From positions 5,885 through 69,884 of IMG/VR virus record IMGVR_UViG_3300020411_004054: a DNA stretch of 64,000 nucleotides; one strand, given 5' to 3'. Made by a program: the position numbers and the translations under genes. Below the pieces are notes generated by a model, which did no database searches, had not been told where the DNA came from, and saw only the letters and a list, made by a program, of their open reading frames with translations. Positions 13,407 to 56,861 of the stretch are shown here, piece by piece (the first letter of the stretch is position 1; every line of letters starts with the position of its first letter). Origin of the DNA: a virus. Lineage: Duplodnaviria; Caudoviricetes.

Positions 13407-14996
13407 ATGAAAATGTTAAAACAAGACCTCGAACGCCTAATCAAAGAAGAAATGTTGAACGAGTTCTTTGGTGGCAAAAAGAAGAAAGAAAAGATAGCTA
13501 ATGCGACAGCTGACCTACAAAAGGCCGGCCTGAAGTACATTCAGGATTTTAGTAATTCACCGGTTGGTCCATTTTTGGAAAAAGGTTCAAAACGCGGACC
13601 GTATAACGTTAAGGGCTGGGAAGATCCGGAAGGCGAGTATTACTCGCAAGTGCTTGGTGTTGACTATACGGACAAGGGCCTTGCTCACGAGCCTCGGATG
13701 GATGACGAAAAACACGAAGAAATGAAAAAGCACTACGAAGCCCTTAAGAGTATTAGGGAAAAGTGGGAAAGTGTCACAGGAAAACAGGCAGACAACGATA
13801 ACTCTCCCTTTGATGCACGGTATGTCGCGAAAGCGGAAGCAATTCCAGGCTTTTATCTCCGCAATGCTGATGATACAAGGGTGGGCAAGTTCGGCTTCTC
13901 CGAAGGCAAGAGAATAAAGGTTTCAAAAAAGGCTCTGCAAAAAATCATTAAAGAAGAAGTTTTAAACGAGTTTCTAGGGTTTGGCAAGAAGAAGAAAGAG
14001 AAAAAAGCTGCGGCCAAGGCAGCAGCTAAAGAAAAGATAGCTGCATACATTAGCGAGTTCACTGGCGCTCCGATCGGTCCATTTCTTAAGAAGGGCGGCG
14101 GCCGGCCAGAATACCAGGATTACAGCGACGATTCCAAGAAGTGGGAAAAGAACTTACGTAACAAAGAAGGCCTTTCAGAGGAAGAACATGCTAGTGTCGT
14201 TGAACAAGTAAAAACAATAAGGGATATCATAAAAGAGTGGGAGTCCGCAACCGGTGATTATGCTGACGATGACAAAGGGGTTCCTCTGGACATTCGAGCA
14301 TTGTCAACAAGCATCGCCACAGCCGGTCTATATCTTGATTATCAAAAAAAGCACAAAAATGAAAGCATAGACTTCATGAAAATTACGAAGAGTCAGCTTC
14401 GACAGATCATCAAAGAGCAGGTGAAAACCTGGAAAGAGCGCCAGGCTGAGATGGATGCGTGGGAGAAAAAGTTAGTTGCTGTTTTGCCTGAAGATCCTTC
14501 GGACTTAAGTGATGCTGATATCACCAACATTGCGCAGGTCTTTATCGATGAATACGGCTTAGACCAGGCTGATGGCTTTTTCGAAGACGACCGTGGCACA
14601 TTAGCGGACTTAGGAGTCCCAACTTATCCTGATCTTGAGCAGATTAGAATGGCCATCAGCTTAGCACAGGACACCGCCCGGAAAGCAAATATTACTAAAT
14701 CTCCTGACAAAAAAGAGCTGCAAGCAATAGACGACGGCCTCGAGCCGCGTGAGGTAGAGCACTTGACCTATCAGCCTATTCGCAGGGGTGGCAAGATTGT
14801 AGCTTTCCAAATTGAAGATAGTGAAACCCCGTGGGGCACAATGCCTTTAGGTCATTCAACCTTCGTAGTAGACGAAAGGGACGCAAAAGCGGCCGGAACA
14901 ACTATTGATAATATCATTAAGATGTTAGAGAAGGGTGGCGCAACTCTCAGGAAGCGGCGTAAACCAGTAAAGAGAACAACTCCATACTACGACTGA
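13407..14996 (+). CDS. KITKRQL-leader polyprotein (three leader copies, two paralogous payload domains)
   Basis: Leaders at 13407, ~13914 and 14376; duplicated PxGPFLxKG...WESxTG..AD.D domain. Confidence 0.85.
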   Translation: MKMLKQDLERLIKEEMLNEFFGGKKKKEKIANATADLQKAGLKYIQDFSNSPVGPFLEKGSKRGPYNVKGWEDPEGEYYSQVLGVDYTDKGLAHEPRMDDEKHEEMKKHYEALKSIREKWESVTGKQADNDNSPFDARYVAKAEAIPGFYLRNADDTRVGKFGFSEGKRIKVSKKALQKIIKEEVLNEFLGFGKKKKEKKAAAKAAAKEKIAAYISEFTGAPIGPFLKKGGGRPEYQDYSDDSKKWEKNLRNKEGLSEEEHASVVEQVKTIRDIIKEWESATGDYADDDKGVPLDIRALSTSIATAGLYLDYQKKHKNESIDFMKITKSQLRQIIKEQVKTWKERQAEMDAWEKKLVAVLPEDPSDLSDADITNIAQVFIDEYGLDQADGFFEDDRGTLADLGVPTYPDLEQIRMAISLAQDTARKANITKSPDKKELQAIDDGLEPREVEHLTYQPIRRGGKIVAFQIEDSETPWGTMPLGHSTFVVDERDAKAAGTTIDNIIKMLEKGGATLRKRRKPVKRTTPYYD

Positions 14997-15004
14997 TACT
15001 CCTA

Positions 15005-16039
15005 ATGAAGATTACAAAAAGACATCTCATAAGACTTATACGTGAAAGCCTAATCAAGGAGCAGGTAATGTGGCACTCTACTGCGCCTGAAAATATTGAG
15101 GCTATTCTATCTCAAGGTCTTCTGGTTGGCAGAGAATCAGCTCAAACAATGGGCGGAGCATGGGCTGATGAGTTTTATGGCACACGGCCGATATATCTCT
15201 CAGTAGACAAGGGCAAATACGAAGGGACACCATTAGCTGTCAATACCTCAGGGCTTAGCTTGGTCGCTGATCTGCCCTCGCTAGTTGATACTGGTGCATA
15301 TCAAGAAGAAGAAGGTATGTATTGGGACGAAGGCTCAGAACCGGCTCAAATGATAGATATCGTTGATGAAGATGGTATGGTTTATTTTGATGAGCTTCTT
15401 TCTCCAGGTAGTGCCGCGGCCAAAGCGGCGATTGACCTCACCGGTACAGCTGCAGTTGTTCAGAATATTCCTTCAAAAAATATCTCTGAGAAAGAGTCCG
15501 GCTTGGCATCTAATGAGCCATCCGCAGCCGAATCTGGGTGGGCATCAAAGAGTCAAGCTGAGAAAGATGATCATGTGAAGAATGCAGTGTGGGAAACGAT
15601 GGCCTGGAAGCGATATCGCAAACATGCTCAAGCAGAAGGGATCCCTTTTGATCCTGACAATGAAGAAGATATGAAGGTGGCCCGGGCTTGGTGGAAAGAG
15701 CAACCGGAAAGCAGACAATTCGAGGGTACAATGAAAGTTACAAAGAACCAGCTTAGAAGAATTATTAAAGAAGTTATTAGTGAACAGAGTCAGACTGCGG
15801 GCCCCCCTATTTCTGGGCGTCATGCTATTTCATTAGGCGGTAGCTATGGAGGTCCCCCTAAAAATCCGGATCCAAAAGGTGCACTCGCAGCAGCCCGGGA
15901 GATGGGATATAGCTTGAGAATTCCACCAGGGGTTGATTCAAATAATATTGCGATCGATGATGCGCTAGCGGCATATCCCGGTGAATTCACATATGAAGAT
16001 ATTATTGCTGCAGTTGAGGCTTCTGGAGGTGTTACATGA
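15005..16039 (+). CDS. KITKRQL-leader protein with ADP-ribosyltransferase-like (Tpt1/PARP-type) domain
   Basis: WHSTAPENIEAILSQGL...PIYLS; second leader at 15731. Confidence 0.7.
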   Translation: MKITKRHLIRLIRESLIKEQVMWHSTAPENIEAILSQGLLVGRESAQTMGGAWADEFYGTRPIYLSVDKGKYEGTPLAVNTSGLSLVADLPSLVDTGAYQEEEGMYWDEGSEPAQMIDIVDEDGMVYFDELLSPGSAAAKAAIDLTGTAAVVQNIPSKNISEKESGLASNEPSAAESGWASKSQAEKDDHVKNAVWETMAWKRYRKHAQAEGIPFDPDNEEDMKVARAWWKEQPESRQFEGTMKVTKNQLRRIIKEVISEQSQTAGPPISGRHAISLGGSYGGPPKNPDPKGALAAAREMGYSLRIPPGVDSNNIAIDDALAAYPGEFTYEDIIAAVEASGGVT

Positions 16040-16533
16040 GAATTAGACGCAGTCAATTAAGACGTGTAATACGAGAAGCTATAGATATCGTCAATCAAGA
16101 CACCGGTGAGGTTATTGATTTCGGTGGACCCGGCAGTCTTTGGCCTGATGAGGCTGTACCTGACCTGGTGAAGCGTCTCAATTTGAACTTAAGCCCAAAC
16201 GACACCTTGTCAAAAGAAGATTGGGATAAGCTTTTTGACGAAACTGTCGGAAAACACTTCGACCGCAAGGATAAAAGAAAAGCAGAAAAACTCGCCGCAG
16301 ACAGGGAGCGATTAAACATCGACAATCTCCTCCAGCGTCTCAGAGACTGGGCACAAACTGCTGCAGATGAATGGCAAGCAGACAATCCTCAAGGACCTAG
16401 CGTTGAAGACGTCGCGTATGATCTTGCTGACTCTGCAGAGTATACATTTTCGAGAGATGAATGGGAAGAACTTCTCTGGCATTTTGACGGCAATGAAGAC
16501 GATCTTAGAATTTATACAGCAGAGAGCATGTAA
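16036..16533 (+). CDS. KITKRQL-leader protein
   Basis: MRIRRSQLRRVIREAI. Confidence 0.85.
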   Translation: MRIRRSQLRRVIREAIDIVNQDTGEVIDFGGPGSLWPDEAVPDLVKRLNLNLSPNDTLSKEDWDKLFDETVGKHFDRKDKRKAEKLAADRERLNIDNLLQRLRDWAQTAADEWQADNPQGPSVEDVAYDLADSAEYTFSRDEWEELLWHFDGNEDDLRIYTAESM

Positions 16534-16534
16534 A

Positions 16535-16786
16535 ATGAAAATCACAAAGAGACAATTAAGAAGAATCATCAAGGAAGAGAAGACTAAGCTCATATCGGAG
16601 ATATCAGCTGAGCAGGCTGCAAAGATAAATGCAGAACAGCAAGGTTTGCAGTCTCAGTCCAGCTTAAGCCAACTACTTATTGATCTTAACGAGATAGTTG
16701 ATGAGATGATAACAGTTCTTGGCGCAGAAGAAACAGCCCAAGAACTGGAAGGTATAGCTGATGAGCTTTATCGTGGGAGTAGATAG
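16535..16786 (+). CDS. KITKRQL-leader protein
   Basis: MKITKRQLRRIIKEEKTKLISE. Confidence 0.85.
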   Translation: MKITKRQLRRIIKEEKTKLISEISAEQAAKINAEQQGLQSQSSLSQLLIDLNEIVDEMITVLGAEETAQELEGIADELYRGSR

Positions 16787-17667
16787 TGAAAATCACGAAA
16801 AGACAATTAAGAAAAATCATTAAAGAAGTCCATCCAGACTATGAAGGACTCCCGCAGAGTGACATTGACTATTACGAGCTAGCAGATGACTATGCCATGT
16901 GGGTCAAAGAAAATGGCCATATCACACCCGCCGCTTCTTCCGTCATGGCGACATACTTTTTAGAGATGGGCCTTGAAGATGACCATGAGAAACATGAGAT
17001 GTTGGGTAAGGCATTCAAGGTAGCTCACAACGATATAATGTCAGACATCAGGCGACAAAAAACAGAAGAAAGGGCAAGAATATCAGAAAGATCTAGCCCT
17101 GAGTATACAATGCCACAGAAAACCAAAGTTATTCCCAGTGAAACCTCTGGAAGATGGAGGCCTGAACTTGAAGCAATATTAGATGCAGCAGCTGCAGCTC
17201 ATGGGAATGTGCCATATGCTGAGCTAAAGAATTTCTTTTGGGCACTTAATTCAACATACGCCACCCAGCGCAAAATAATGGAGGGCAAATCAGTGAGAAT
17301 CACAAAAAGACAGCTTAGAAGAATCATCAAAGAAGCTATGCCCAAAGGGGGTGTTCCGGATGTTGTAGGTGCTGTATCAGGAGTCTCCGGAGAAGAAAGA
17401 AGACAGCTCATGGACGCGCTTGAAAAGAAGTACGGACTCGCGGTGAAAACTACTGAAGAGTTTGGGTCTAGCCCTGGCGGTATTTGGTTGAGTGGTGAAG
17501 ACGGCACTACAGCATCTGATGGAGTGCCTCTGTTTGATTCTTATGCCGGAGGCATGGACCCATATGATGATTTTGGAGTTCACACAGAGTTTAACGACTT
17601 TGTTGAATCATATGGATTTTTTGCCGAGTGGTACGATCCAGGTACACTAATGTTGTGGAGAATGTAA
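16786..17667 (+). CDS. KITKRQL-leader protein, two units
   Basis: N-terminal leader plus internal leader at 17293. Confidence 0.85.
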   Translation: MKITKRQLRKIIKEVHPDYEGLPQSDIDYYELADDYAMWVKENGHITPAASSVMATYFLEMGLEDDHEKHEMLGKAFKVAHNDIMSDIRRQKTEERARISERSSPEYTMPQKTKVIPSETSGRWRPELEAILDAAAAAHGNVPYAELKNFFWALNSTYATQRKIMEGKSVRITKRQLRRIIKEAMPKGGVPDVVGAVSGVSGEERRQLMDALEKKYGLAVKTTEEFGSSPGGIWLSGEDGTTASDGVPLFDSYAGGMDPYDDFGVHTEFNDFVESYGFFAEWYDPGTLMLWRM

Positions 17668-17735
17668 CATGATTACATTTTGGCATGCACTGCTTAAAGG
17701 GTTGACACCTTTTCCAAAAAAGAGCAAAGAAGTAA

Positions 17736-18137
17736 ATGAAAATCACAAAGAAGCAGCTTAGAAGAATTATTAAAGAAGAGCTCATCAGAGAATCTAACTG
17801 GAATCAGAGTCTGGGCGGCCCTGGTTTGAGTGATCTTCCGTGGGCATACCCGGATGGGAGCCTCGATGCCAACATATCAGCTGCGATGGCTAAAGCAGCT
17901 GAGCAAGGTTTTAACGCGTCCCAGTTTCTTAATGAAGACTCAGACTTTGGTTATAGCGATGTTGACGCGTATGACGCACTTAGGGCGCTAGAAGCTGGTT
18001 TTGTGGAACAGAGCCAGATTCCCTATGAAACTGCTGATGAGTCTGGTGTTATACGCATTGGTACTGTCAAAGAGTACGGGATAACGGAAAACATAGGGGT
18101 GATAGACGTAATGGGCTATCAAACGTGGATAAGATAA
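17736..18137 (+). CDS. KITKRQL-leader protein
   Basis: MKITKKQLRRIIKEELIRE. Confidence 0.85.
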   Translation: MKITKKQLRRIIKEELIRESNWNQSLGGPGLSDLPWAYPDGSLDANISAAMAKAAEQGFNASQFLNEDSDFGYSDVDAYDALRALEAGFVEQSQIPYETADESGVIRIGTVKEYGITENIGVIDVMGYQTWIR

Positions 18138-18138
18138 T

Positions 18139-18414
18139 ATGAAGATCACAAAGAGACAGCTGAGAAGAATCATAAAAGAAGAGAAGGCACGCATCTTAAG
18201 CGAGCAGGTAAGTACATCTGAGGCAGGCACTATTCTAGGGCACCTGGAAGACGCCATGAGCCTGTTCGAGGCATACGCTGACAGCTATGGATCAATGGAA
18301 TGGGAGCAGGGAGATGCTAACTCCGAAGAACAAGACGTTCTAAACCAGATTGCGGGTATCCGTAGCCTTCTCGAGTCATACTTTGACCAGTTTGGACCGC
18401 AGGCTTTCGGATAA
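18139..18414 (+). CDS. KITKRQL-leader protein
   Basis: MKITKRQLRRIIKEEKARILSE. Confidence 0.85.
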   Translation: MKITKRQLRRIIKEEKARILSEQVSTSEAGTILGHLEDAMSLFEAYADSYGSMEWEQGDANSEEQDVLNQIAGIRSLLESYFDQFGPQAFG

Positions 18415-18437
18415 GAAGCGATCTAAGGGAAAATAAA

Positions 18438-18734
18438 ATGAAAATCACTAAGCGTCAACTACGAAGAATCATCAAAGAAGAGAAAGCTCGCATCTTAAGA
18501 GAGAAGTCTAGCGAGTCCGAGGAAAGAGCTATTCTAGACCAATTGAATAAGGTGCTCAAAAATGTTAGGGATGTTGCGGGTACTTTGAAACAGGAGGACA
18601 GAAAAGACGGGGTGGCACTAAAGCTCGAATTGCAAGGTGAAGCATTAATACGTCTCAGAAATCTCCTTGATGAGTACTTTGACGAATTTGGATCTCTTAG
18701 CCCAGTCGATACGCTCGATATGTATGGTAGGTAA
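18438..18734 (+). CDS. KITKRQL-leader protein
   Basis: MKITKRQLRRIIKEEKARILRE. Confidence 0.85.
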   Translation: MKITKRQLRRIIKEEKARILREKSSESEERAILDQLNKVLKNVRDVAGTLKQEDRKDGVALKLELQGEALIRLRNLLDEYFDEFGSLSPVDTLDMYGR

Positions 18735-18738
18735 CAAA

Positions 18739-19113
18739 ATGAAAATCACAAAAAGACAACTAAGACGAATTATTAGAGAAGCAATGGCCGACGAGCCCAT
18801 CCGCATGCTACCCGGTGATTCGTTTGAAGCACAACCTGGTACGGCAGGAAACAAGCACCTCGGAAGGAGCCGGCAAACTTCGAAGCGGGGCTACAAGACC
18901 ACGATAACATTGAGCCCCACAGGCGATTCCCTTCTAGTGAGTGGAGGAGAGACAGAGCTTGACTTTGTACCTAGCGCACTTTATATCGCATCCGGCCAAA
19001 AGGTTCCAGAAGCTCTTGGTGATGCTATGATTGACAAGATAGAAAAGCAAATGGCGAGTGGGTACGTTGAAGTACCGATATCATGGTCACCAAGCACAGG
19101 GTGGAAATTCTAA
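18739..19113 (+). CDS. KITKRQL-leader protein
   Basis: MKITKRQLRRIIREAM. Confidence 0.85.
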   Translation: MKITKRQLRRIIREAMADEPIRMLPGDSFEAQPGTAGNKHLGRSRQTSKRGYKTTITLSPTGDSLLVSGGETELDFVPSALYIASGQKVPEALGDAMIDKIEKQMASGYVEVPISWSPSTGWKF

Positions 19114-19313
19114 TGAAAATCACGAAGAGACAGTTAAGAAGACTCATCAGAGAAGAGATTAGTGCAGACCCGATCGACGATTATGAAGCGAAGGAGTATG
19201 AGCGAGGCTATCAGGATGGGCTCGATGGATATCCCGTAGCAGATAACGCTACTACTTCTTATGACGCCGGATATGAGGATGGCTCGAACGATGCTGAAAG
19301 GTCGGGAAGATGA
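19113..19313 (+). CDS. KITKRQL-leader protein with YxxGYxDG repeats
   Basis: MKITKRQLRRLIREE; YERGYQDG and YDAGYEDG. Confidence 0.85.
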   Translation: MKITKRQLRRLIREEISADPIDDYEAKEYERGYQDGLDGYPVADNATTSYDAGYEDGSNDAERSGR

Positions 19314-19552
19314 AAATCACCGAAAAACAGTTGAGGTCTGTGATTAGAGAGGCAATCACACTAGATCTTAAGAAAGGTGATGTTATCTTGACAGGCAAAT
19401 TCAAAAACAAAAGAACTGTCGTGAAAGAGATCGGTGTCGATGAGCATGGACATCCTACCGTTAATGGGAAGTCTATCTTGAAGTTTAAGGTCGAAAAGTT
19501 TCTCCCTGAGGATGAGTGGAGCAAAAAGTCTAAAGAAGGCCTAGAGAAATGA
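19310..19552 (+). CDS. KITKRQL-leader protein with KOW-like payload
   Basis: MKITEKQLRSVIRE; LKKGDVILTGKFKNKRTVVKEI. Confidence 0.8.
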   Translation: MKITEKQLRSVIREAITLDLKKGDVILTGKFKNKRTVVKEIGVDEHGHPTVNGKSILKFKVEKFLPEDEWSKKSKEGLEK

Positions 19553-19822
19553 AGAAGCACCTGTGGTCTGTAGCGAATATATTCGCCTGGCTGGGTATTG
19601 CTAGTTATGTCTCTTTGGTGACCGTAGTACTATCAGAAGGGTGTATCAATGCATAAACTCAGACTAGCTAAACAGTACATGATTAATGAAATTAGAGACT
19701 ATAGCAAGATATGGCTACTTTTGATCAAAGGGAAAGGGTCTTTGTCTGACTACTTGTTTCTATACACAGAAATTTCTATTGGTCTGCTAGCCGGCTATGC
19801 AATTTGGGGCTAAGTTTTACAT

Positions 19823-20659
19823 ATGTTGGTAAACGAACAAGCCCTGCGTAATCTAATTCGCGAAAGCATTAAAGAGGCAAAGAGACAGAACCCAAGAGTC
19901 CTGGATGAAGGCTTGCTTGATATCCTCAAAGGGTTAGTTAGCAAGCTTTTCGGCATGTTAGGAGGTGAGCTAGAAGCTGCAGCTACACAGTCCGCCGGAG
20001 ATCTCACTTCAGCCTCAGGTACAGTTGCTCAAGAAATACAAGGCGAACTAGAATTACCCGAACCAAAACAATGGGCTGACCTCCAACCAAAAGAAAACAA
20101 CACAGATAAAGCTATTTGGGCATTGACAGTTGTAAGAGTATTTGTGGACATGGAAGGGCCTAGAGAAGAAGCTATAACGGCGATTCAAGATGCCTGGCAG
20201 GTAAAAAGTCTCGCGCCACCAAGTGAAGAGGCTGCTTCTGAATGGGAGTCAGGAGAAGATGCCGCTCTTTTGGAGGGTCTGTACAAAGGGATTGGCGCGT
20301 TCAAGGGTTGGCTCGTATGGTTAAGCGCACATTTTGAATCTGCGCAAGCCGCAGCTGATGGAATAGATGAGACTGCCAAACTTTCAGAGATGATGAGTCA
20401 AGTAGTTCCCGCAGCTGAGTTTATAATAGGATCAGTCGTCCCAGGACTTGAGTCAGCTGCCTCAGCAGTTAAAGCCACAGGCTATGAGGGTGACTACGTC
20501 TCTGATTTACAGTTAATGTCTGCAGGCGCAGAAAATATTGGGAAAGCGGCACAACAGCTAAGTGATCACTTTAAAGAGCTTGAAGCCATGGCAGATGAAG
20601 CAGCAAAGAAGTCGGAAGAAGCTTCAGTTGGCGATGCCGCAGAAGGCATGCCCGCCTAA
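19823..20659 (+). CDS. Helical Ala/Glu-rich protein with degenerate leader
   Basis: MLVNEQALRNLIRESIKE...VLDE. Confidence 0.8.
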   Translation: MLVNEQALRNLIRESIKEAKRQNPRVLDEGLLDILKGLVSKLFGMLGGELEAAATQSAGDLTSASGTVAQEIQGELELPEPKQWADLQPKENNTDKAIWALTVVRVFVDMEGPREEAITAIQDAWQVKSLAPPSEEAASEWESGEDAALLEGLYKGIGAFKGWLVWLSAHFESAQAAADGIDETAKLSEMMSQVVPAAEFIIGSVVPGLESAASAVKATGYEGDYVSDLQLMSAGAENIGKAAQQLSDHFKELEAMADEAAKKSEEASVGDAAEGMPA

Positions 20660-26516: not shown

Positions 26517-26593
26517 CGGCTCCTAGCTCAATCGGTTAGAGCAGCGGTCTCATAAACCGCAGGTTCTGGGTTCGATCCCCAGGGAGCCGACCA
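26517..26593 (+). tRNA. tRNA with CAT anticodon (elongator Met or Ile2)
   Basis: CGGCTCC/GGAGCCG acceptor, GCGGT-CTCATAA-ACCGC arm, TTCGATC loop, encoded CCA; paired position 1-72 argues against initiator. Confidence 0.93.

Positions 26594-29830: not shown

Positions 29831-29837
<7 letters not shown>
29657..29837 (+). ncRNA. Candidate structured RNA or leader overlapping the 5' end of tRNA-Arg
   Basis: GGCTCGGGCA/TGCCCGAGCC helix, internal stems and a 14-nt palindrome. Confidence 0.55.
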
Positions 29838-29907
<70 letters not shown>

Positions 29908-30274: not shown

Positions 30275-30349
30275 GCCCTGTTCGTCTAGTGGTTAGGACG
30301 GTGGTTTTTCAGGCCATCTACGGGAGTTCGATCCTCCCACAGGGTACCA
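30275..30349 (+). tRNA. tRNA-Glu(TTC)
   Basis: GCCCTGT/ACAGGGT acceptor, loop TTTTCAG, TTCGATC, CCA. Confidence 0.93.
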
Positions 30350-30394: not shown

Positions 30395-30470
30395 GGGCCG
30401 TTAGCTCAACCGGTAGAGCACTGGACTTTTAATCCATAGGTTCTGGGTTCGAGTCCCAGGCGGCTCACCA
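30395..30470 (+). tRNA. tRNA-Lys(TTT)
   Basis: GGGCCGT/GCGGCTC acceptor, loop CTTTTAA, TTCGAGT, CCA. Confidence 0.95.
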
Positions 30471-34755: not shown

Positions 34756-36096
34756 ATGCGTACTCAGACATTTAAGAGCAAGGTTAGAGCTATCAATGAG
34801 ATCGCTAGCGCTTCACGATTTGCACCCACTGCTCAAGAAGAAGCAGAGAAAATTAATGCCCAGACTGGGGCCGACTATGTTACAGATCAGGCTTTTTGGG
34901 AAAAGCAAGGTATCTTTACCGGTGAAGAGCTAGCTTTGTCTGTTTTAGGGCAAACCTATTCTGACATGTATAAAGAATTGCACGGATTCCGGCCTCGTGG
35001 TTGGAGAGGTGTAGAAACAATTGAAAAGCTTCAAGCTGCAATTGATAGCTTAGATAAAGAATTCGAAGAAATGCTAGTGCAGCAAGAGATCGATGATAAA
35101 ATTGCTGCCGAATACGAAGCAGATCGTCAAGAAATAGCAGAGTTAATGCCGGATGAATATGATTATGATACATCTCCTAAAAGTTCAGGCATGGGTAGAA
35201 GAATGGAAAGTAGAACACACATCACTGTTAAAGAGCTCAAAAGCATCATAAACGAAGCGATCGATGGTCATCCTTATGATGGTCCTATTGAAGATTGGGC
35301 TTCTATCGCTTCAAATAAGTGGGGACATGGTTCGGTTGTCGACCCTCAAGGATGGAAAGATAACTGTAAGCTTGGTGGAAAATTTACCAAAGGTAAGGCT
35401 CCTTCTGTCCTCTCCCCTCAAAAAATTAAAATGACCGAAACCGGCCTTAGAGATATCATTAGGAACATTCTCCTCAAGGAGTACGGCGGCCGACCCTATG
35501 ATCCCACTGCTCCCGGTGATTACGAACGATATCGTGATAACCCAACCGGGGATGCTCCTCCCGGAGGAGAATTTGATGCCAAGCTAGAGAAGATGGCGGA
35601 TGAGATCGGTGATCGTGCTGCCGGTGGATATGAACCCTCCATAGACGGTTCTCCGGAGGCGTACGCAGACATGATCCTTGATGTATATCTTGAAGATCCT
35701 CCCCCGCCCCTTGATCAGATGGAAGATTTAGAGTTCGTCCTCACGAAACCCATGTACAGAGAGCAAGTTAAAAATGCAGTACTCGAGTACATAGGGATGA
35801 TGACTGAGAGCATTTCGTATGGTCTACAAGAAGGTGTCGACCCAAGAGGGCTTAAGACACTGCTTAAGAACCTAGGTGTCACAAAAGCTTTTAGAGGTGT
35901 TTCTGAGGCCCTATCTGACGCATTTTACGAATGGGAAGGCGACGCTGAGGACATGAAGGAGGCCGTTGAGGGCTATCACGGTGGATATCGTGATGACAGT
36001 GGTCAGGCTATCGATTGGCCTCTTGATGTATACCAGCAACTTTATGAACTATACGTCAAACAGAAGGCAAGTTACAGAGCCCCGGGGAGATATTAA
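34756..36096 (+). CDS. Multidomain protein with two internal KITKRQL-type leaders
   Basis: RME|SRTHITVKELKSIINE and KMTETGLRDIIRNILLKE. Confidence 0.85.
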   Translation: MRTQTFKSKVRAINEIASASRFAPTAQEEAEKINAQTGADYVTDQAFWEKQGIFTGEELALSVLGQTYSDMYKELHGFRPRGWRGVETIEKLQAAIDSLDKEFEEMLVQQEIDDKIAAEYEADRQEIAELMPDEYDYDTSPKSSGMGRRMESRTHITVKELKSIINEAIDGHPYDGPIEDWASIASNKWGHGSVVDPQGWKDNCKLGGKFTKGKAPSVLSPQKIKMTETGLRDIIRNILLKEYGGRPYDPTAPGDYERYRDNPTGDAPPGGEFDAKLEKMADEIGDRAAGGYEPSIDGSPEAYADMILDVYLEDPPPPLDQMEDLEFVLTKPMYREQVKNAVLEYIGMMTESISYGLQEGVDPRGLKTLLKNLGVTKAFRGVSEALSDAFYEWEGDAEDMKEAVEGYHGGYRDDSGQAIDWPLDVYQQLYELYVKQKASYRAPGRY

Positions 36097-36360
36097 ATGA
36101 AAATCACAAAGAGACAACTTCGAAGAATCATTAAAGAAGAGAAGGCTAGAATTCTAAATGAGATGAACCCGGATGGCACGGTCTCAGATGATGAGGAAGA
36201 GCGCGAAGCAGACTTAATGGCACATGTCGAAATATCAATTGATGAGCTGATTGAAAAGGCTACCGAAGAAGCATATGCTATAGGCGGAACTTTTAGATCA
36301 CCTGGAATTAGAAAGCGAGTCAAGGCGCTGATCTTCGACAAGATTAGCAGGATGAGATAA
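36097..36360 (+). CDS. KITKRQL-leader protein
   Basis: MKITKRQLRRIIKEEKARILNE. Confidence 0.85.
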   Translation: MKITKRQLRRIIKEEKARILNEMNPDGTVSDDEEEREADLMAHVEISIDELIEKATEEAYAIGGTFRSPGIRKRVKALIFDKISRMR

Positions 36361-36362
36361 CA

Positions 36363-36719
36363 ATGAAAATCACAAAGAGACAACTCAGAAGAATCATTAA
36401 GGAAGAGAAGGCCAGGGTGTTAAAGGAGCAATGGGGTGACCGGGTCGAAACCGGGTCAGACCTTATTGAATTTGCAAGAGCATATGCAGGGTTAGGTGAT
36501 GCCGTTCAAAGTCAGGTTGAGGAAGTCGTTTCTGCCTATTATAATATGGCTCCCGGCAGTGAAGACTTTATGGAAGTCGTGTATGAACAAAATCCCAATG
36601 CTATCCATATGGCTTATGATAAACTTGGCAGGGTTCTCGGGATGATGGATGGTGATGATGCACTTGGGATATCGGAAGCTCTCCAGGCCGCGATGGAAGC
36701 ATATGAGAATGAGGAATAA
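36363..36719 (+). CDS. KITKRQL-leader protein
   Basis: MKITKRQLRRIIKEEKARVLKE. Confidence 0.85.
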   Translation: MKITKRQLRRIIKEEKARVLKEQWGDRVETGSDLIEFARAYAGLGDAVQSQVEEVVSAYYNMAPGSEDFMEVVYEQNPNAIHMAYDKLGRVLGMMDGDDALGISEALQAAMEAYENEE

Positions 36720-36720
36720 A

Positions 36721-37029
36721 ATGAAAATCACTAAGCGGCAACTTCGAAAAATCATTAAAGAAGAAATATCTAGACTAGATGATCTATATGTTGTTATTGG
36801 CAATGCAGGACGAGGAAGACAAAACTTGTGGCCAAAGAGTGATGAGCCTGAAGTGCTAACTAAGGCTGAAGCAGAGAAGATCGCCCAAGATCTTAACAGT
36901 CGACAAGGTGGTGGTTACATGCAAATTAGTTATCATGTCAAGCCTTTGGGTAGCGCTGCCGAGTATATTTCGCCAGGACAGGCTGCACATGCCGGCATTA
37001 TAAGTCTAATAGACAAACACGGAATTTGA
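36721..37029 (+). CDS. KITKRQL-leader protein
   Basis: MKITKRQLRKIIKEE. Confidence 0.85.
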   Translation: MKITKRQLRKIIKEEISRLDDLYVVIGNAGRGRQNLWPKSDEPEVLTKAEAEKIAQDLNSRQGGGYMQISYHVKPLGSAAEYISPGQAAHAGIISLIDKHGI

Positions 37030-37031
37030 TT

Positions 37032-37394
37032 ATGAAAATTACAAAGAAACAACTTAGAAGAATTATTAAGGAAGCATGCGCGCTTTCTGATAGCGGACAA
37101 GATCAAGCGGCACAACCCCTGGATGCGATATCTCAACTAGTTGCTGCACACGAAGAAGAAGCAGCATCTGATCACTTTTCTCCGGAAGTGCCAGTCCCAG
37201 AAGACTATGATAAAACTAGAGATTTCTTAGAACAAAATCCGGAACTAGTTGACCTAGGTCTTTCTATTGTTATGGATGGTGCCGGCACTGGATGTGAAAG
37301 ATCAACAGCACAAGGTGTAATCGATCACTTGCAAGACATGCTAAGCGCCAGCGATGCTTCACAAAACTTGGAGATTCCTCTAGAGGGTGCCTGA
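37032..37394 (+). CDS. KITKRQL-leader protein
   Basis: MKITKKQLRRIIKEA. Confidence 0.85.
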   Translation: MKITKKQLRRIIKEACALSDSGQDQAAQPLDAISQLVAAHEEEAASDHFSPEVPVPEDYDKTRDFLEQNPELVDLGLSIVMDGAGTGCERSTAQGVIDHLQDMLSASDASQNLEIPLEGA

Positions 37395-37433
37395 GGTTGA
37401 TTTATCGTCTCGGTCGAGACAAAAGGTAACAAA

Positions 37434-37694
37434 ATGAAAATCACAAAAAGACAACTAAGACGAATCATTAAGGAAGAGAAGGCCAGACTCCTCAAAGAGT
37501 ATACTCCTGCAGATGTTAGTGGATCTGGTCCTTATTCTAGCGCTTCGAACATCGAAGAAGAGATAGCAGCACTTGAAGAAGTACTTAATTCTTTAATGGT
37601 CGCCGGCCGCAATTTACCAGCGCCTATGGACACAAGAATCGAAGATGCTGTTGAACTAATTGAACGCGCACTAAATGTGCTTTACGGTAGGTAA
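37434..37694 (+). CDS. KITKRQL-leader protein
   Basis: MKITKRQLRRIIKEEKARLLKE. Confidence 0.85.
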   Translation: MKITKRQLRRIIKEEKARLLKEYTPADVSGSGPYSSASNIEEEIAALEEVLNSLMVAGRNLPAPMDTRIEDAVELIERALNVLYGR

Positions 37695-37696
37695 TC

Positions 37697-37954
37697 ATGA
37701 AACTATCTAAGAAACAGCTTAAGAAGATAATCAAAGAAGAAAAACAGAAAATCTTGACAGAGTCATATGAGTATGATGTAGATAGTGAGATCTATGATGT
37801 GCTTCAACACTTGTCAGATGCCAGTCTAAGACTGGAAGAAATTGTTCAACACTACGATACAGTAGATCCGGAAAATCGCAAAGCCATGCAGATTTTTAAT
37901 CTAGCCAACCAGATAAAGAAAATAGAAAAAACATTGGAGACTCACGTAAAATGA
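37697..37954 (+). CDS. KITKRQL-leader protein
   Basis: MKLSKKQLKKIIKEEKQKILTE. Confidence 0.85.
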   Translation: MKLSKKQLKKIIKEEKQKILTESYEYDVDSEIYDVLQHLSDASLRLEEIVQHYDTVDPENRKAMQIFNLANQIKKIEKTLETHVK

Positions 37955-38265
37955 AAGTTACCAAGCGCTTACTAAAGAAAATTATCAAGGAAGAGAAGAC
38001 AAAGATTCTTGAGCAGTCTAGAGCTAGCTCAGAAGGAAATATTCAAGCAGAACTAGCTAGCATTATTGATGCTGTACAAGAACTATCAGACGGTCTGTAC
38101 GGTTTGCAAGACCCGGGTGACCCAGGTGTAGCAGCTGGTGATGAAATGGCACAAGATCTAGCGCTGCAAGTCGAAAGACTTAATAAGCTATTTGATCAAC
38201 TTGAGTCTTATTTTTTAACAATTGACGACATGGCCGGGCGGAACCCGGGTGGGAGTATAGGATAA
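37951..38265 (+). CDS. KITKRQL-leader protein
   Basis: MKVTKRLLKKIIKEEKTKILE. Confidence 0.85.
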   Translation: MKVTKRLLKKIIKEEKTKILEQSRASSEGNIQAELASIIDAVQELSDGLYGLQDPGDPGVAAGDEMAQDLALQVERLNKLFDQLESYFLTIDDMAGRNPGGSIG

Positions 38266-38645
38266 TGAAGATCACAAAACGATATCTTAGAAAAATTATT
38301 AAGGAAGAGAAACGTAGATTAATCTATGAGCAAGCAGTGTCTGCACAATCTCAGGTCGATTCTCGTGAACACCAGTGGCCTAGCGCAGACGGGCCGATAT
38401 CAGATGTTGCATTAGAATTATCGACATCTTGGGGTGACATGGAAGCAAAAGCTTGGTCTGCTGGAGATCCTTCCATGAACCAACAAGGTGAGCTTTCTGA
38501 TGCTGAGTCTAAGACTTGGTGGGTTGAACAGGTTGATAATGCAACTGAAGAACTGGAGGCAGCACTAGAAGAAAGACTGCGTGCTGAATCCATCAAGGTC
38601 ATGGAAGAGTTTACTGACAGATTGATTAATGGCGATTTTGCGTAA
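38265..38645 (+). CDS. KITKRQL-leader protein
   Basis: MKITKRYLRKIIKEEKRRLIYE. Confidence 0.85.
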   Translation: MKITKRYLRKIIKEEKRRLIYEQAVSAQSQVDSREHQWPSADGPISDVALELSTSWGDMEAKAWSAGDPSMNQQGELSDAESKTWWVEQVDNATEELEAALEERLRAESIKVMEEFTDRLINGDFA

Positions 38646-38938
38646 TGAAAGTTTCAAAAAAAGCATTGCAAAAAATTATCAAAGAAGAAAAGCAGCTTTA
38701 TCTAGAGCAACTAACAATGGCGAACAGAGCCCGCGGTTTGTTAATAGATAATGTCAAAGCTGAGAGAGTGAAGCAGATACTTAGCATTATGTACGACGAA
38801 GCAGTCAACGATGCTATTGCTGAAGAAGGTCTCGAGACAGATGAGGCAGAAGAGATGGCTATTCGTGGTGTGACTGAAGTTTTTGGCGAATTTTTAGACA
38901 GTGTTGGCTTTCGATATATGTTAGCTGACTTAGATTAA
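38645..38938 (+). CDS. KITKRQL-leader protein
   Basis: MKVSKKALQKIIKEEKQLYLE. Confidence 0.85.
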   Translation: MKVSKKALQKIIKEEKQLYLEQLTMANRARGLLIDNVKAERVKQILSIMYDEAVNDAIAEEGLETDEAEEMAIRGVTEVFGEFLDSVGFRYMLADLD

Positions 38939-38962
38939 CATTAACCCTTAAGGAAAAATAAA

Positions 38963-39058
38963 ATGAAAAAAGTACTACATAGACTAAGAAATTTATTTAA
39001 CGATCACTGTTGCTGCTGCTGTAAGTGCTGCGGTTGCGAAGAGTGTGCTTGTTGCTAA
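38963..39058 (+). CDS. 31-aa Cys-rich, metallothionein-like micropeptide (not in ORF track)
   Basis: MKKVLHRLRNLFNDHCCCCCKCCGCEECACC; AAGGA SD. Confidence 0.6.
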   Translation: MKKVLHRLRNLFNDHCCCCCKCCGCEECACC

Positions 39059-39069
39059 AGAGATAAAAC

Positions 39070-39804
39070 ATGAAAATTACGAGTCGACATCTTAAGAGAA
39101 TCATTAAGGAAGAAGTAGCAGCATCTGCAATCCCATTAGATGCGATTGCTAGTATGTTATCTCAAGAAGAAGAAGAAGGAAGAAACTTAGGTCATTCCGG
39201 AGAATCGGGTGAAGCCAAGATGACAAGAGCACAGTTGGCGCACATTAGTCAAGACGCCGATGAACTTGTCGATATGCTTAATGATGATGATGAACTTCCT
39301 GAGTGGATGCAGTCAAAAGTTGCTGCTGTCGCTGATAAGATGCAAGATGTCCACGACTATATTGAGACGAAAACAGGTGAAATATCTGAAAGGGTTCGTC
39401 TTAAGATTAGACTCAAGAAAATTATTCGTGAGCAAGATGACATGCTAGACGCAGATCATCCTTCTGAAATTGAAGCCGTAGAGAATGTCTGGGGTGGCGA
39501 TATTGAAGGAAAGGATAGAAATTTATCTTTGCCAATAGATCACTCTAAAGCAGCAAAGTCAGAGCCTGTAACACAAGGCCCTGAAATGCTTAAGCATGCT
39601 GAGCCGGTTCTAGCAAATGAAGGAAGAATTCAAGTATACCGCGGCCAGAATGATCTAGGTAAACTTTACAGAATCCCTTCTATTATATTTGAACGTTACT
39701 ATGATGCATATGTTTCGGGTAAATCTGAAGCAGCTTCTGATATTCTAGAAGAACATCTAGACAACTACTTTCCAGGCTGGAAAGATTATGAGTGGAGATC
39801 TTAA
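39070..39804 (+). CDS. KITKRQL-leader protein with an MxxxQL...LPEWMQSK domain
   Basis: N-terminal leader plus internal ISE|RVRLKIRLKKIIRE. Confidence 0.85.
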   Translation: MKITSRHLKRIIKEEVAASAIPLDAIASMLSQEEEEGRNLGHSGESGEAKMTRAQLAHISQDADELVDMLNDDDELPEWMQSKVAAVADKMQDVHDYIETKTGEISERVRLKIRLKKIIREQDDMLDADHPSEIEAVENVWGGDIEGKDRNLSLPIDHSKAAKSEPVTQGPEMLKHAEPVLANEGRIQVYRGQNDLGKLYRIPSIIFERYYDAYVSGKSEAASDILEEHLDNYFPGWKDYEWRS

Positions 39805-40518: not shown

Positions 40519-40938
40519 GTGAGAATTACTGAGGTTGGCTTGAGATCCATAATACGCGCAGTATTATGTGAACAAGTTGTAGGTTATCAGGCACCTAGCA
40601 AATCTTATGATGATCCTTTGGGTGATGATGATCACACATTCTCCTCTCCTTCTTCCGATAGTTCGTCGTCTGTAAAAACTGATGATTCTGAGTCTGATAA
40701 CAGTGGCTCTGACGGTTATATGCAAATAGGAGATGTTTCTGTTGCTACTAGCGCGACAGACACAGCTGATCAAAAGAAAGCCGGCGCTGCAATGTCTACT
40801 CAAGATAGACAACAAATTAGAACGCAAATGGCTAATCTTTCAAAGCAGAGACAAAACTCTGCGAATAGCGGTGATGCAAAGCAGGCTGATTATTTGGGCA
40901 TCCAAATGAAGAGGCTGAAAGATGTACTCAACCCTTAA
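40519..40938 (+). CDS. KITKRQL-type leader protein with Ser/Asp-rich linker
   Basis: MRITEVGLRSIIRAVLCE. Confidence 0.8.
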   Translation: MRITEVGLRSIIRAVLCEQVVGYQAPSKSYDDPLGDDDHTFSSPSSDSSSSVKTDDSESDNSGSDGYMQIGDVSVATSATDTADQKKAGAAMSTQDRQQIRTQMANLSKQRQNSANSGDAKQADYLGIQMKRLKDVLNP

Positions 40939-41006
40939 TTCATAATACACAGGCGCATTAAAAGAATTATAGTTGCGTATTGTGACTTTTTAGTATTTGT
41001 AGGTTT

Positions 41007-41276
41007 ATGCGTTATATTTGTTCAATTTATAAAGATCGCCCAAAACCATGTATAGGATATCCATGGAATATCGCGAATCAAATATTTGAAGACTGTCAGT
41101 TTTTAAATAAAGAACAAGACGGTCTCTTGAGCATGGATGATCTTCTTGAGACAAAGACAGAAAAAGAAATTAGTGATTATTGCGTTGAGTGTGGCAAATG
41201 TTGTTTTTTTGGCCCGGCGGCTTGCTCCAAACTTCTTATCGTCGAAGATGAAGTAGAAAGGGAAGATGAAAAATAA
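41007..41276 (+). CDS. CxxCxxCC (YkgJ-like) metal-binding protein with permuted motif order
   Basis: CSIYKDRPKPCIGYP, CQFL and CVECGKCC. Confidence 0.6.
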   Translation: MRYICSIYKDRPKPCIGYPWNIANQIFEDCQFLNKEQDGLLSMDDLLETKTEKEISDYCVECGKCCFFGPAACSKLLIVEDEVEREDEK

Positions 41277-41571
41277 CAATTCAGGTAGTAACGCTATGAT
41301 CAAAGAATTGCTAGATACACTTCCTGTTGCTGCTTTATTTTTTGAAAAAGATGGTGGGATGAACCTGGTAGTCGACGACGAAGCCGACGCAGAAGAGCTA
41401 AAAAGCATATCGACAATAACTAGTTTTTTTCAATATACGCTAAGCAGACCTGATTGGATTTCTGACTTTGCAAAACAAACTGCTTCAACCGAAAAGATCC
41501 GATCCAAACCCCGTCTTCGTATTATTCAAGGGGGCCTGTCAAAGCATTCAGGCAGTGGCCATTCCACATAA
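41266..41571 (+). CDS. Hypothetical protein
   Basis: Coupled ORF; C-terminal LRIIQGG. Confidence 0.65.
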   Translation: MKNNNSGSNAMIKELLDTLPVAALFFEKDGGMNLVVDDEADAEELKSISTITSFFQYTLSRPDWISDFAKQTASTEKIRSKPRLRIIQGGLSKHSGSGHST

Positions 41572-41626
41572 TTTAATAATCGTGTCTCTGCAGCCTATTT
41601 TTTATCTCTTAGGTGCATAGATAATA

Positions 41627-41920
41627 ATGAGGTTTAAGCAAGGACAACACACAACAGCCATGATTACTTACATAAAGTTAGGACTAGGAACTCTAGCAGC
41701 ACTGCTTATTATAGGCTATTCAGTGCCGGCATCAGCGGGAATACCGCTAAGCAAGACATCTTCTAGTCAGATAAACTCTAGAGCCTACAAAATGCCAGTA
41801 GGTGTCTTTAATATAAAATCGCTATACAAGCCTATGAACTCTACAGTAAAGGTTGTTGACTTTAGTGCCTGGAAGTTTCGTATTGAAAAAGAAACAAAGA
41901 CTTTAGTGAATAAGAAGTAG
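41627..41920 (+). CDS. Membrane-anchored or secreted hypothetical protein
   Basis: LGLGTLAALLIIGYSVPASA signal-like segment. Confidence 0.6.
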   Translation: MRFKQGQHTTAMITYIKLGLGTLAALLIIGYSVPASAGIPLSKTSSSQINSRAYKMPVGVFNIKSLYKPMNSTVKVVDFSAWKFRIEKETKTLVNKK

Positions 41921-41939
41921 TAACTTACTATTTATTCAT

Positions 41940-42251
41940 ATGAGCATTAAACTTCTGCGTCAGTTTATAAGAGAACAAGTTGGCACTGGCGATCTACTAG
42001 GCGCGCGTCAGTCTTTTAAGACAAAAGACACAGGTCCGTTCACCTATGAAGACTTTGAAGGCTATGATATTGATATCGTAGCAAATGTACACGGGCAATA
42101 CTCGCTTACAGTTAAACATAACGGAGAAAATATTTCTCCTAGCAGTATGTTTAAAGATTATGCTGAGGCTAATCACCATGCAAGAATGATAGTCGACAAG
42201 CATAGAGTGGGAAAAGTAGAGCCTAGTGTCAAGAAGAAAGAAGTCTACTAA
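41940..42251 (+). CDS. Short-leader (LLRQFIRE) protein
   Basis: MSIKLLRQFIREQ. Confidence 0.75.
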   Translation: MSIKLLRQFIREQVGTGDLLGARQSFKTKDTGPFTYEDFEGYDIDIVANVHGQYSLTVKHNGENISPSSMFKDYAEANHHARMIVDKHRVGKVEPSVKKKEVY

Positions 42252-43831: not shown

Positions 43832-44491
43832 ATGCGTCGAAAGTACCTTTTAATTAGTGAAGAAGCTCAAAAAGAAAGCACTGAATCGTTAAGTGCTAGT
43901 AACAAACCTATTCAGGCTTACGAAGAGGTCCATTCAGTTGGTCCTGACAGGACACCTAAGGGTATTGAAGTTGATGAAAATAGAATTTATTTTTATTGTC
44001 CTGTAGGTGATTATGAAGCACTCGAAATCAACAGACTTATTCGTAGGCTGGATGTTGAAATGAAATATCTTAGTGACCGTCTTGCATGCAAGTCCGTGCC
44101 TATTCATCTTCATATTCATAGTCCAGGCGGTTCGATTTTTGCCGGCCTTTCAATTGTTGACAGCATTAAAAACTGCAAATCAGAAGTATACACGTACATT
44201 GACGGATCAGCAGCAAGCGCAGCAACATTAATCTCAACATCAGGCAAAAAAAGATTTATGACAAAAAATAGTTTTATGCTCTTGCATCAACCTCAACTTG
44301 AATGGTCAGGTAAATTGGATGAATTTAGAGATGAAATAGAAAATCAAAAGTCCTTATACGAAAAACTTACAAATGTTTATTTGGAAAACTCATCAATGGA
44401 GAAAGAAGACCTCGATGATCTTCTTACTCATGAGCTGTGGTTAGATGCTGATAAGTGTTTAGAACTAGGGCTTATTGATAAAATAATCTAA
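43832..44491 (+). CDS. clpP: ClpP-family serine protease
   Basis: IHSPGGS, GSAASAATLI, LLHQP and WLDADKCLELGLIDKI. Confidence 0.9.
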   Translation: MRRKYLLISEEAQKESTESLSASNKPIQAYEEVHSVGPDRTPKGIEVDENRIYFYCPVGDYEALEINRLIRRLDVEMKYLSDRLACKSVPIHLHIHSPGGSIFAGLSIVDSIKNCKSEVYTYIDGSAASAATLISTSGKKRFMTKNSFMLLHQPQLEWSGKLDEFRDEIENQKSLYEKLTNVYLENSSMEKEDLDDLLTHELWLDADKCLELGLIDKII

Positions 44492-53722: not shown

Positions 53723-54082
53723 GGGGGCGAAAAGGTTTCGACAGGGTGTAACGCCTTGATGGTGCAAGTATCCAACGGTAACACATGGATTGATAGTGTT
53801 GCAAATTTTAAATGCCAACGATAATGTTGAGTACGATTACGCCTTAGCTGCTTAATCCGGGGTTTCCAGCAACCTTGTTATCAAAGCTGGATAAGTGGTT
53901 GATCCCACCGAAATAAACAAGATCAAAAATGGTTCCTAGAAATAGGTGAGATCCTGATTCTCGATAAGGATGGGTGGTTTTTCGAGATACCTTGTTAGTT
54001 TGGGAATAAGCTGACTAAACTTGTGAATGACCTGATATGCTGAGCATTTTGGACGCGGGTTCGATTCCCGCCGCTTCCACCA
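53723..54082 (+). ncRNA. ssrA: tmRNA; tag (A)ANDNVEYDYALAA at 53814-53855
   Basis: GGGGGCG/CGCTTCC-A-CCA acceptor with G3-U70, GGTTTCGAC D-region, GCGGGTTCGATTCCCGC T-arm, tag ending YALAA-stop. Confidence 0.95.
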
Positions 54083-56831: not shown

Positions 56832-56861
56832 TCTTCGATACTTAGTTACGGAGGTGAAAAA

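Follow-up and report, generated by a model that had tools for sequence, protein, structure and literature searches.

An N-terminal leader shared by arrays of otherwise unlike proteins in an uncultured T4-type giant phage is a candidate capsid-targeting and cleavage tag

We analysed a 64-kb stretch of viral DNA (positions 5,885 to 69,884 of the IMG/VR record IMGVR_UViG_3300020411_004054; hereafter "the window", with all window positions given in its own numbering). At 13407-20659, 12 head-to-tail open reading frames (ORFs) lie on the + strand, and every one opens with a version of the same short N-terminal leader; 12 leader-bearing ORFs had been claimed here in an earlier reading of this DNA (the sequence-only reading), and the ORF listing bears this out. 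The leader has the 15-residue consensus M-K-I-T-K-R-Q-L-R-R-I-I-K-E-E, corresponding to a basic helix, and is frequently extended by K-A-R-L-L-x-E. The proteins that bear it have a median length of 105 residues.

Three ORFs of this first array (array 1) carry internal leader copies as well. ORF 13407..14996 has three units, with a degenerate leader (MKMLKQDLERLIKEE) at 13407 and further leaders at 13914 and 14376; its first and second units are paralogous repeats. ORF 15005..16039 has two units and is made up of a leader, an ADP-ribosyltransferase-like domain of about 140 residues (roughly 15059-15500) and a second leader at 15731 with a payload of its own. ORF 16786..17667, also of two units, starts with GTG in a leader at 16786; another leader headed by GTG follows at 17293. 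Between the latter two lie the cargo ORF 16036..16533, whose leader is diverged (MRIRRSQLRRVIREA; expect value (E) 0.003) and which has an ortholog of 38% identity at 51760 of G005, a related viral genome described below, and the 83-residue cargo ORF 16535..16786 with a complete two-part leader. Single-leader cargo ORFs then follow at 17736..18137 (133 residues), 18139..18414 (91 residues), 18438..18734 (98 residues), 18739..19113 (124 residues, leader ending IIREA), 19113..19313 (66 residues) and 19310..19552 (80 residues, with a lysine-rich small beta payload). The array closes with a 278-residue ORF (19823..20659) that has a degenerate leader (MLVNEQALRNLIRESIKE) and is a weak member of the family.

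The internal copies share a feature of their own. Among 33 such copies from the window (13914, 14376, 15731 and 17293) and related loci, Glu-Gly, Glu-Ser or Glu-Asn nearly always stands 2-5 residues upstream of the leader. This could be either a cut site within a polyprotein or the in-frame ribosome-binding site of a gene that lacks its preceding stop codon. We set the protease-site reading of these residues aside because the identical bases spell an in-frame ribosome-binding site (GAGG/GGAG).

The strict motif [KR][IVLM][TS]xxxLxx[IVL][IL][KR]E matched 23 times when all six frames of the window were translated. Every match is on the + strand, 13 of them at 13.9-19.3 kb and the other 10 at 36.1-39.1 kb; in 50 shuffled controls the mean was 0.02 and the maximum 1. 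A hidden Markov model (HMM) trained on these matches detected 14 copies in array 1 and 10 in array 2 at E ≤ 0.003 (24 in all), with weak leader-like copies at 13434, 19841, 39412, 40525 and 41949. The two arrays that hold the copies span 13.4-20.7 kb and 34.8-42.3 kb. Array 2 has as its core ten closely packed leader-bearing cargo ORFs on the + strand (36097..39804; starts at 36097, 36363, 36721, 37032, 37434, 37697, 37951, 38265, 38645 and 39070), recognized by profile and strict-motif matches. Ahead of them, also on the + strand, is a 446-residue ORF with two degenerate internal leader-like segments (34756..36096), and behind them are possible diverged members (40525..42251, + strand) with weak leader-like starts at 40525 and 41949, the latter in ORF 41940-42251. 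Motif and profile together give about 31 leader copies in about 25 ORFs for the window, close to the earlier count of about 32 copies in about 26 ORFs.

Conservation was measured on 399 distinct copies, drawn from the window and from 66 viral contigs. Positions 1-15 each hold 2-4.75 bits of information, and from position 16 on the content falls to about 1 bit or less. Met opens 88% of copies and Val 7%; L8 is found in 99%, I11 in 94%, I12 in 97%, Lys or Arg at position 13 in 92% and E14 in 99%, and residue 15 is Glu (72%) or Ala (14%). A second peak follows L19/L20, with E22 in 47% of copies. The end of the leader, I-[KR]-E, is an instance of the motif L/I-x-E, after which the T4 prohead protease gp21 cleaves (the T4 capsid protein gp23 loses 65 residues in this way; PMC9026906). 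The leader has a net charge of +3.65, whilst the payloads are acidic in 88% of cases, with a net charge of -0.08 per residue. Both a second Glu site and a collapse of similarity into diverse, largely acidic payloads had been described in the sequence-only reading, and the larger sample upholds both.

The repeat is maintained at the level of the peptide. Among the window copies, codons are identical at only 55% of the sites where the residue is the same, and the mean nucleotide identity between leaders is 73% over the first 45 nucleotides; identical runs of 20 bases or more occur in 6 of 231 leader pairs, with a maximum of 32. The DNA upstream of the copies is unconserved except for a purine-rich stretch and an abutting stop codon. 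This synonymous variation, together with the unconserved upstream DNA, shows that the peptide is what selection acts on. Codons in the leader are A-rich (AAA, AGA, GAA and ACA). As a separate observation, the window encodes the tRNAs Met-CAT, Arg-TCT, Glu-TTC and Lys-TTT (26517-26593, 29831-29907, 30275-30349 and 30395-30470), four species that correspond to the residues and codons (ATG, AGA, GAA and AAA) dominating the ~30-fold repeated leader; the match may be a coincidence with AT-rich codon use.

Among 74 payloads of at least 150 residues, none matched a Pfam family above the cut-off. A PHROGs search with 31 window proteins gave no match below E 0.001 for the 11 leader-bearing ORFs among them, and 51 leader proteins gave two matches, neither of them to a family with a known function. 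As a query, the first payload of ORF 15005-16039 (residues 19-162) drew 253 relatives at E ≤ 0.001 from 1.84 billion representatives. These occur as stand-alone proteins of 143-175 residues, as NUDIX fusions and as the ends of giant proteins (1985 and 2250 residues) that contain ART-PolyVal, GNAT, cREC_REC and ParB_N domains. Across 72 aligned members, H24, Y58 and P62 never vary and D89 hardly does; no catalytic Glu of an H-Y-E or R-S-E set is assigned. The AlphaFold2 model of this payload has a pLDDT (predicted local distance difference test score) of 88.4. Foldseek returned nothing at E ≤ 0.001 for the model, and its weak top matches are nearly all of the ADP-ribosyltransferase fold: Tpt1/KptA, DarT, pertussis-like toxins and PARP. 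VIA-align scored all matches below Z 8, the best being Tpt1/KptA at Z 6.8 (root-mean-square deviation 2.0 over 74 residues), with DarT1 at Z 6.4 over 121 residues. Among curated ADP-ribosyltransferase profiles, Pfam PARP gave E 0.0031 and 17.5 bits, below its cut-off of 26.7, and the nearest named atlas clusters are ADP-ribosyltransferase families, at just 0.84-0.86. We regard the payload as ADP-ribosyltransferase-like rather than as a proven member of the superfamily.

The same domain is found behind different N-termini. Extensions of at least 10 residues precede it in 49 of the 72 members, the other 23 having a short one or none. A hydrophobic residue-x-Glu falls within the last 14 residues before the domain in 28 of the 49 extensions, compared with 13.9 ± 2.7 (maximum 22) in 500 shuffles. 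The kinds of extension include the leader studied here, an E-x-W-[RN]-x-F-[LI]-x-E type and the sequence MITFKQFITEE, which matches the capsid-targeting sequence (CTS) of the T4 internal proteins at positions 4, 7, 8 and 10. The second type is borne by the homologues P0124, P0131, P0135, P0139, P0141, P0147 and P0195 and the T4-like one by P0144, all from metagenomic phages. On sequence, these N-termini look like further leader families. By tblastn, neither the domain nor a homologue of it with another leader was found among 50,697 cultured or deposited phage records.

The small beta payload of ORF 19310-19552 behaves in a similar way. Its family gave 275 matches at 65-100% identity; members with a leader often end it in IIAE followed by Ala, and leaderless members begin exactly at the leader's end. 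The predicted model of this payload (pLDDT 70) had no fold match. In both predicted models the leader is a separate helix (residues 5-17). Since payload families are found with this leader, with other leaders or with none, the leader is an optional and exchangeable module and not a part of the payload fold.

With the 91-residue ORF 18139-18414 as query, 278 metagenome proteins matched at E ≤ 0.01; they are mostly marine, and behind their near-identical leader stand unrelated helical tails, mostly acidic. In IMG/VR more than 623 stretches matched, and 66 loci on contigs of up to 293 kb were analysed. The window-derived profile found 432 copies in these loci, all on the match strand and up to 30 within 20 kb. 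In cellular genomes, taken as one per species for 185,579 species, there are 7 leader loci, all on metagenome-assembled contigs that bear mutually inconsistent taxonomic labels; one of these is 101,404 bp long, the same as a leader-bearing IMG/VR viral contig. The leader is not a cellular motif, and so the suspicion that it might be common in cellular genes, a check set by the sequence-only reading, did not materialize. A leader protein used as tblastn query had no match among the 50,697 phage records, and a 32-residue leader query had a sole, weak match there, in LR756508.1. A full-text literature search, covering articles rather than their supplements, found no mention of the peptide.

The window shares synteny with G005, a complete IMG/VR record of 293,409 bases that has terminal repeats, over positions 14-78 kb of the latter, and the proteins of the larger conserved genes are 50-74% identical. 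The leader occurs 30-33 times in G005, at 47.6-56.9 kb, 267 kb and 284.5-286.4 kb. Its gp23-like capsid protein matched 2587 phage records, all below 60% identity, the nearest being Microcystis phage Mel-JY01, LR756508.1 and Flavobacterium phages; with all matches this distant, the clade is taken to be related to T4 but uncultured. By these comparisons the window can be assigned to an uncultured marine clade of T4-type giant phages of about 290 kb.

A T4 gp21-type protease (Peptidase_S77) is encoded in 15 of 24 leader-bearing records (all 5 large ones and 10 of 19 further ones). The proportion depends on completeness: all 12 records that are at least 60% complete encode it, as do 3 of the 12 below this, and the nine without it are all at most 58% complete. 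The co-occurrence of leader and prohead protease that the sequence-only reading had put up for checking is thus found in every record of at least 60% completeness. S77 is also encoded by LR756508.1 (L102, 156480-158204), where the protein has 574 residues and an insert splits the protease profile into two halves.

The protease sits in a T4-type head module, at 167-178 kb in G005 and conserved across the relatives G001-G005. In G005 the order is large terminase, portal, a 283-residue protein, S77 (171474-172085), five small proteins, a very acidic 562-residue scaffold-like protein and the gp23-like capsid protein. In all five relatives, two small proteins just 3' of the protease start with leader-like sequences. 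The first (137-153 residues) has the N-terminus MAK[ILM][ST][KR]xxLKx[IL]VKECLVEIL[ST]E, and the second (91-110 residues) has K[LI]TPx[LF]L[KR][KR][LI]Vx[EQ]E near its start; an example from G004 is MAKITKRMLKGIVKECLVEILSEG. An HMM built from the five 24-residue N-termini of the 137-153-residue protein, run against 1820 window segments, placed leaders in the top 18 ranks (E 0.009-0.77). Conversely, when the window-derived HMM was run against 68 head-module proteins, two of the 137-153-residue proteins ranked first (E 0.006 and 0.023). LR756508.1 (484 kb) has 31 copies of a leader variant, M-[RK]-L-[ST]-E-[RK]-K-L-R-x-I-V-K-E-E, and 12 leader genes lie directly on both sides of the protease gene, between it and the scaffold-like and capsid genes.

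Other parts of the module resemble T4 as well. In the capsid proteins of all five relatives, VL[RK]E with Ala, Ser or Gln after it lines up with the T4 gp23 cleavage site (LTE followed by Ala, at residue 65), and on this alignment the clade's protease probably keeps the cleavage specificity of T4 gp21. The relatives' scaffold-like protein starts M-S-x-x-L-[YF]-x-E-A-I-A-E-A, resembling the T4 gp22 start MLKEQLIAEA. It has a net charge of -47 to -69; T4 gp67, at net -25, contains LIKEEK. A complex prediction with the G005 scaffold-like protein (5-row alignment) and a 78-residue G005 leader protein (17-row alignment) scored 0.00 against a mark of 0.32, and was uninformative either way.

In T4, IPII and IPIII start with MKTYQEFIAE and IPI starts with MKTFKEFTSTTTPVSTITE, each followed by Ala. 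The first 10 residues of IPIII suffice for packaging, and within the CTS residues 4 and 7 serve targeting and residues 8 and 10 cutting (PMC9026906); the internal proteins co-purify with gp22 (PMC9026906, PMC3012670), and those of T-even phages are diverse, with only the CTS in common (PMC3012670). The statements of the sequence-only reading on T4 and phiKZ, namely that T4 internal proteins share a short targeting sequence ending in Glu and that the proteases of both phages cut after Glu, agree with PMC9026906 and, for T4, with the T4 sequences.

The tag exists, is under selection as a peptide, has a sharp end, is modular with respect to its payloads, resembles head-module N-termini and is confined to T4-type phages with the protease. 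Taking this together, we give somewhat better than even credence to the leader being a T4-style capsid-targeting and cleavage tag, expanded about tenfold. The leader helix would bind the protein core or scaffold of the assembling prohead, and the tagged protein would be built into the head before DNA entry. The gp21-type serine protease would then cut after E14 in I-[KR]-E and free the payload inside the head; in about half of the proteins a second cut could follow L-x-E at residue 22. The payloads, mostly small, acidic and fast-evolving, would exit with the DNA at infection, and the ADP-ribosyltransferase-like one may parallel T4 Alt. Multi-unit ORFs might yield small polyproteins, or their units might be started separately as genes of their own. 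The sequence-only reading had gone as far as a much-expanded packaging tag that is trimmed at maturation and delivers its payloads at infection. The tag itself finds support, and none of the computational checks that could have refuted the proposal did so; presence in virions, removal of the leader and delivery are steps that we infer.

Several observations weigh against a capsid-targeting tag. The payloads are acidic, whereas the T4 internal proteins are described as basic (PMC9026906). E14 is mostly followed by another Glu, in place of the Ala or Ser of the T4 sites examined. The Glu-Gly, Glu-Ser and Glu-Asn ahead of the internal copies could be plain ribosome-binding sites. Each single match between the leader and the head-module N-termini is marginal (E 0.006-0.8). 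No S77 gene was found among the 25 larger ORFs scanned in the window, where neither protease nor head module is seen. Mel-JY01 has S77 and no leader match, so the protease does not imply the leader, and the co-occurrence of the two may just mirror membership of the clade. Among cultured phages, the tblastn search of the 50,697 records and the scan of Mel-JY01 found none with the leader.

Gene placement also speaks against it, in that the arrays of the 290-kb clade are remote from its head genes and those of G005 lie downstream of strong early-type promoters. This objection is weakened because T4 ipI-III likewise sit apart from the head genes and behind early-type promoters, with no T4 late-promoter motif (TATAAATA) within 120 nucleotides. 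The G005 early-type promoter, TTCTGTAAAAAA-N14-TATGGTATAATA, often followed by ACTATAAGG, is strongly conserved and present in 14 copies, on the + strand only (13448-44378, 64306 and 245689-280408); the window has no copy of it. Matches to the sigma-70 promoter consensus around the two arrays were not above chance (24 against 19.2 expected, and 30 against 22.8). G005 shows no enrichment of TATAAATA, with 8 occurrences on the + strand where shuffles gave 21.7, and the window lacks this motif. Another sequence, ATATTTA[TC], is a candidate for a late motif: it stands 33-49 nucleotides before the G005 portal, scaffold and sheath genes and a large tail gene, and also inside one array (54839) and before another (282920). 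It, too, is missing from the window, and is too AT-rich and rare to decide the timing of expression.

The gene content around the arrays includes Lon, S-adenosylhomocysteine hydrolase, a ClpP-like protease, a Rad3-type helicase, a tubulin-like protein, PhoH-PIN, a DUF444/SpoVR/PrkA trio, the four tRNAs and one transfer-messenger RNA (tmRNA). Lon (1765-4125) is full-length, with substrate-binding, AAA and proteolytic domains; since Lon_C is found in none of five related leader-bearing records, it looks like an acquisition by the window's phage alone. The tmRNA (53723-54082), whose tag peptide ANDNVEYDYALAA ends in YALAA, occurs in a Lon-encoding window and near the ClpP-like gene (43832-44491). 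DUF444, SpoVR and PrkA, a trio associated with stress and sporulation in bacteria, adjoin one another on this phage at 46545-51058 and are 61-74% identical to their G005 counterparts. ORF 57592-63999, of at least 2136 residues, runs past the 3' end of the window, and no Rfam family was found in 56800-64000.

The leader proteins might never be packaged at all. They could instead be an early host-takeover or anti-defence family in which the shared helix docks all members on one partner (RNA polymerase, the ribosome, a chaperone or DNA) whilst the variable tail does the work. The placement of the G005 arrays in small-gene regions behind early-type promoters would suit this, and small, acidic, fast-evolving payloads are what many early phage proteins look like. 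We think it unlikely nonetheless, as it leaves unexplained the end of conservation exactly behind I-[KR]-E, the leader-like N-termini of the head-module proteins next to the protease, the 12 leader genes that flank the protease of LR756508.1 and the other hydrophobic residue-x-Glu extensions, one of them T4-CTS-like, on homologous payloads; T4 internal-protein genes, too, sit behind early-type promoters. Alternatively, the proteins might enter the prohead as accessories of its core or scaffold, and be cut, degraded and expelled like T4 gp22, gp67 and gp68. The likeness of the leader to head-module N-termini would be expected here, acidic helical payloads resemble both the scaffold-like protein and T4 gp67, and core proteins are known to be fragmented and removed (PMC9026906). 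However, some 30 fast-diverging paralogues per genome that differ between close relatives are unlike a structural scaffold, and at least one payload is an enzyme-like domain, resembling the ADP-ribosyltransferase fold, that also occurs alone and in giant multidomain proteins. We give this explanation little credence.

Two further explanations take the leader out of the head altogether. As an N-terminal degradation or timing tag for an ATP-dependent protease (host ClpX with phage ClpP, or Lon), it would give the family a short lifetime; the Lon, ClpP-like and tmRNA genes of the window could be cited for this, as could the presence of ClpP in all five leader-bearing records tested. It is, however, very improbable, given that Lon_C is missing from the relatives, that ClpP co-occurs no better than S77 does, and that it accounts neither for the invariant Glu and the Ile two residues before it, nor for the second L-x-E site, nor for the link to the head module. 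Finally, the signal might reside in the nucleic acid, as an A-rich gene start that boosts translation initiation or as a homology anchor for the swapping of cassettes between phages. The A-rich leader codons fit the phage tRNAs, and the few leader pairs with long identical runs could aid occasional recombination. Yet synonymous positions vary freely in a peptide that is near-invariant in hundreds of copies, the upstream DNA is unconserved, and any swapping of cassettes may follow from the repeat rather than be its cause; we consider a nucleic-acid signal very improbable, too.

Beyond the capsid-targeting tag itself, we tentatively entertain a broader picture. A deep, abundant and uncultured aquatic clade of T4-type phages (records of 111-484 kb) might load about 30 rapidly replaced proteins per genome through one ancient, portable peptide, some of them as protease-cut polyproteins, as an injected arsenal ten times that of any studied phage, with an ADP-ribosyltransferase-like enzyme among them; the head-module proteins would have been the original owners of the tag. 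If so, common marine giant phages would deliver dozens of pre-made proteins with their DNA, not a handful, and the first minutes of infection, host takeover and counter-defence by these phages would be seen anew. Some 400 public proteins of unknown function (399 distinct copies so far) would become candidate injected effectors, and the 15-residue tag could be put to use in packing foreign proteins into these capsids, a use that the T4 tag already has. The interchange of leaders ending in a hydrophobic residue-x-Glu on one payload, one of these leaders being T4-like, further suggests a general rule by which the packaged proteins of uncultured T4-type phages would be findable from sequence alone.

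The closest known system is the CTS of T4. In both, a short N-terminal peptide is common to otherwise unrelated proteins (24 clear copies in the window) and has an Ile-x-Glu end, followed by Ala in T4 MKTYQEFIAE and by Glu or Ala after IIKE here. Both phage types encode a gp21-type protease, and in both the tag resembles the N-terminus of the phage's own head-core protein (gp22 in T4 and the 137-153-residue protein here). Early-type promoters precede the genes in both, at a distance from the head genes, and an ADP-ribosyltransferase (Alt in T4; PMC9026906) or a payload like one (ORF 15005-16039) is among the proteins concerned. In contrast to this likeness of design (an MK start and an I-x-E end), the leader has no detectable sequence homology to MKTYQEFIAE: a search of the complete T4 genome with leader profile A2 gave a single chance-level match (E 0.0125; T4 73008-73040, in trna.3 at 72918-73328) and none in an ip gene. 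We have therefore classed it as CTS-like and not as a member of the CTS family. It is also longer (15-22 residues as against 10-19) and strongly basic, and is carried by about 30 genes per genome as against 3-4 in T4; its payloads are mostly acidic where those of T4 are basic, tandem multi-unit ORFs occur, and the system is known from sequence alone.

The inner-body and ejection proteins of phiKZ, 201phi2-1 and SPN3US are comparable in that these large phages, too, pack many different head proteins and process them after Glu, a site with few further determinants, by gp21-related proteases (PMC9026906, PMC5694885 and PMC7411985). Their cleavage site is S/A-x-E, with Ser, Ala or Gly at P3 where the leader has Ile or Leu; as described there, the proteins are without one common N-terminal leader; and the capsid protein of the present clade is gp23-like.

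The polyvalent proteins of phages and conjugative elements share a component with the system described here, the ~140-residue payload domain that also ends the giant ART-PolyVal/GNAT/cREC_REC/ParB_N proteins; here, by contrast, it is a small separate cargo behind a leader. Polyvalent proteins have been proposed to travel with phage DNA, and the shared domain counts in favour of the capsid-targeting reading. Outside the phages, the cargo-loading peptides of encapsulins likewise use a short portable helix to address unrelated cargo into a shell of the HK97 fold, but those tags are usually C-terminal, remain uncut and bind the shell protein directly.

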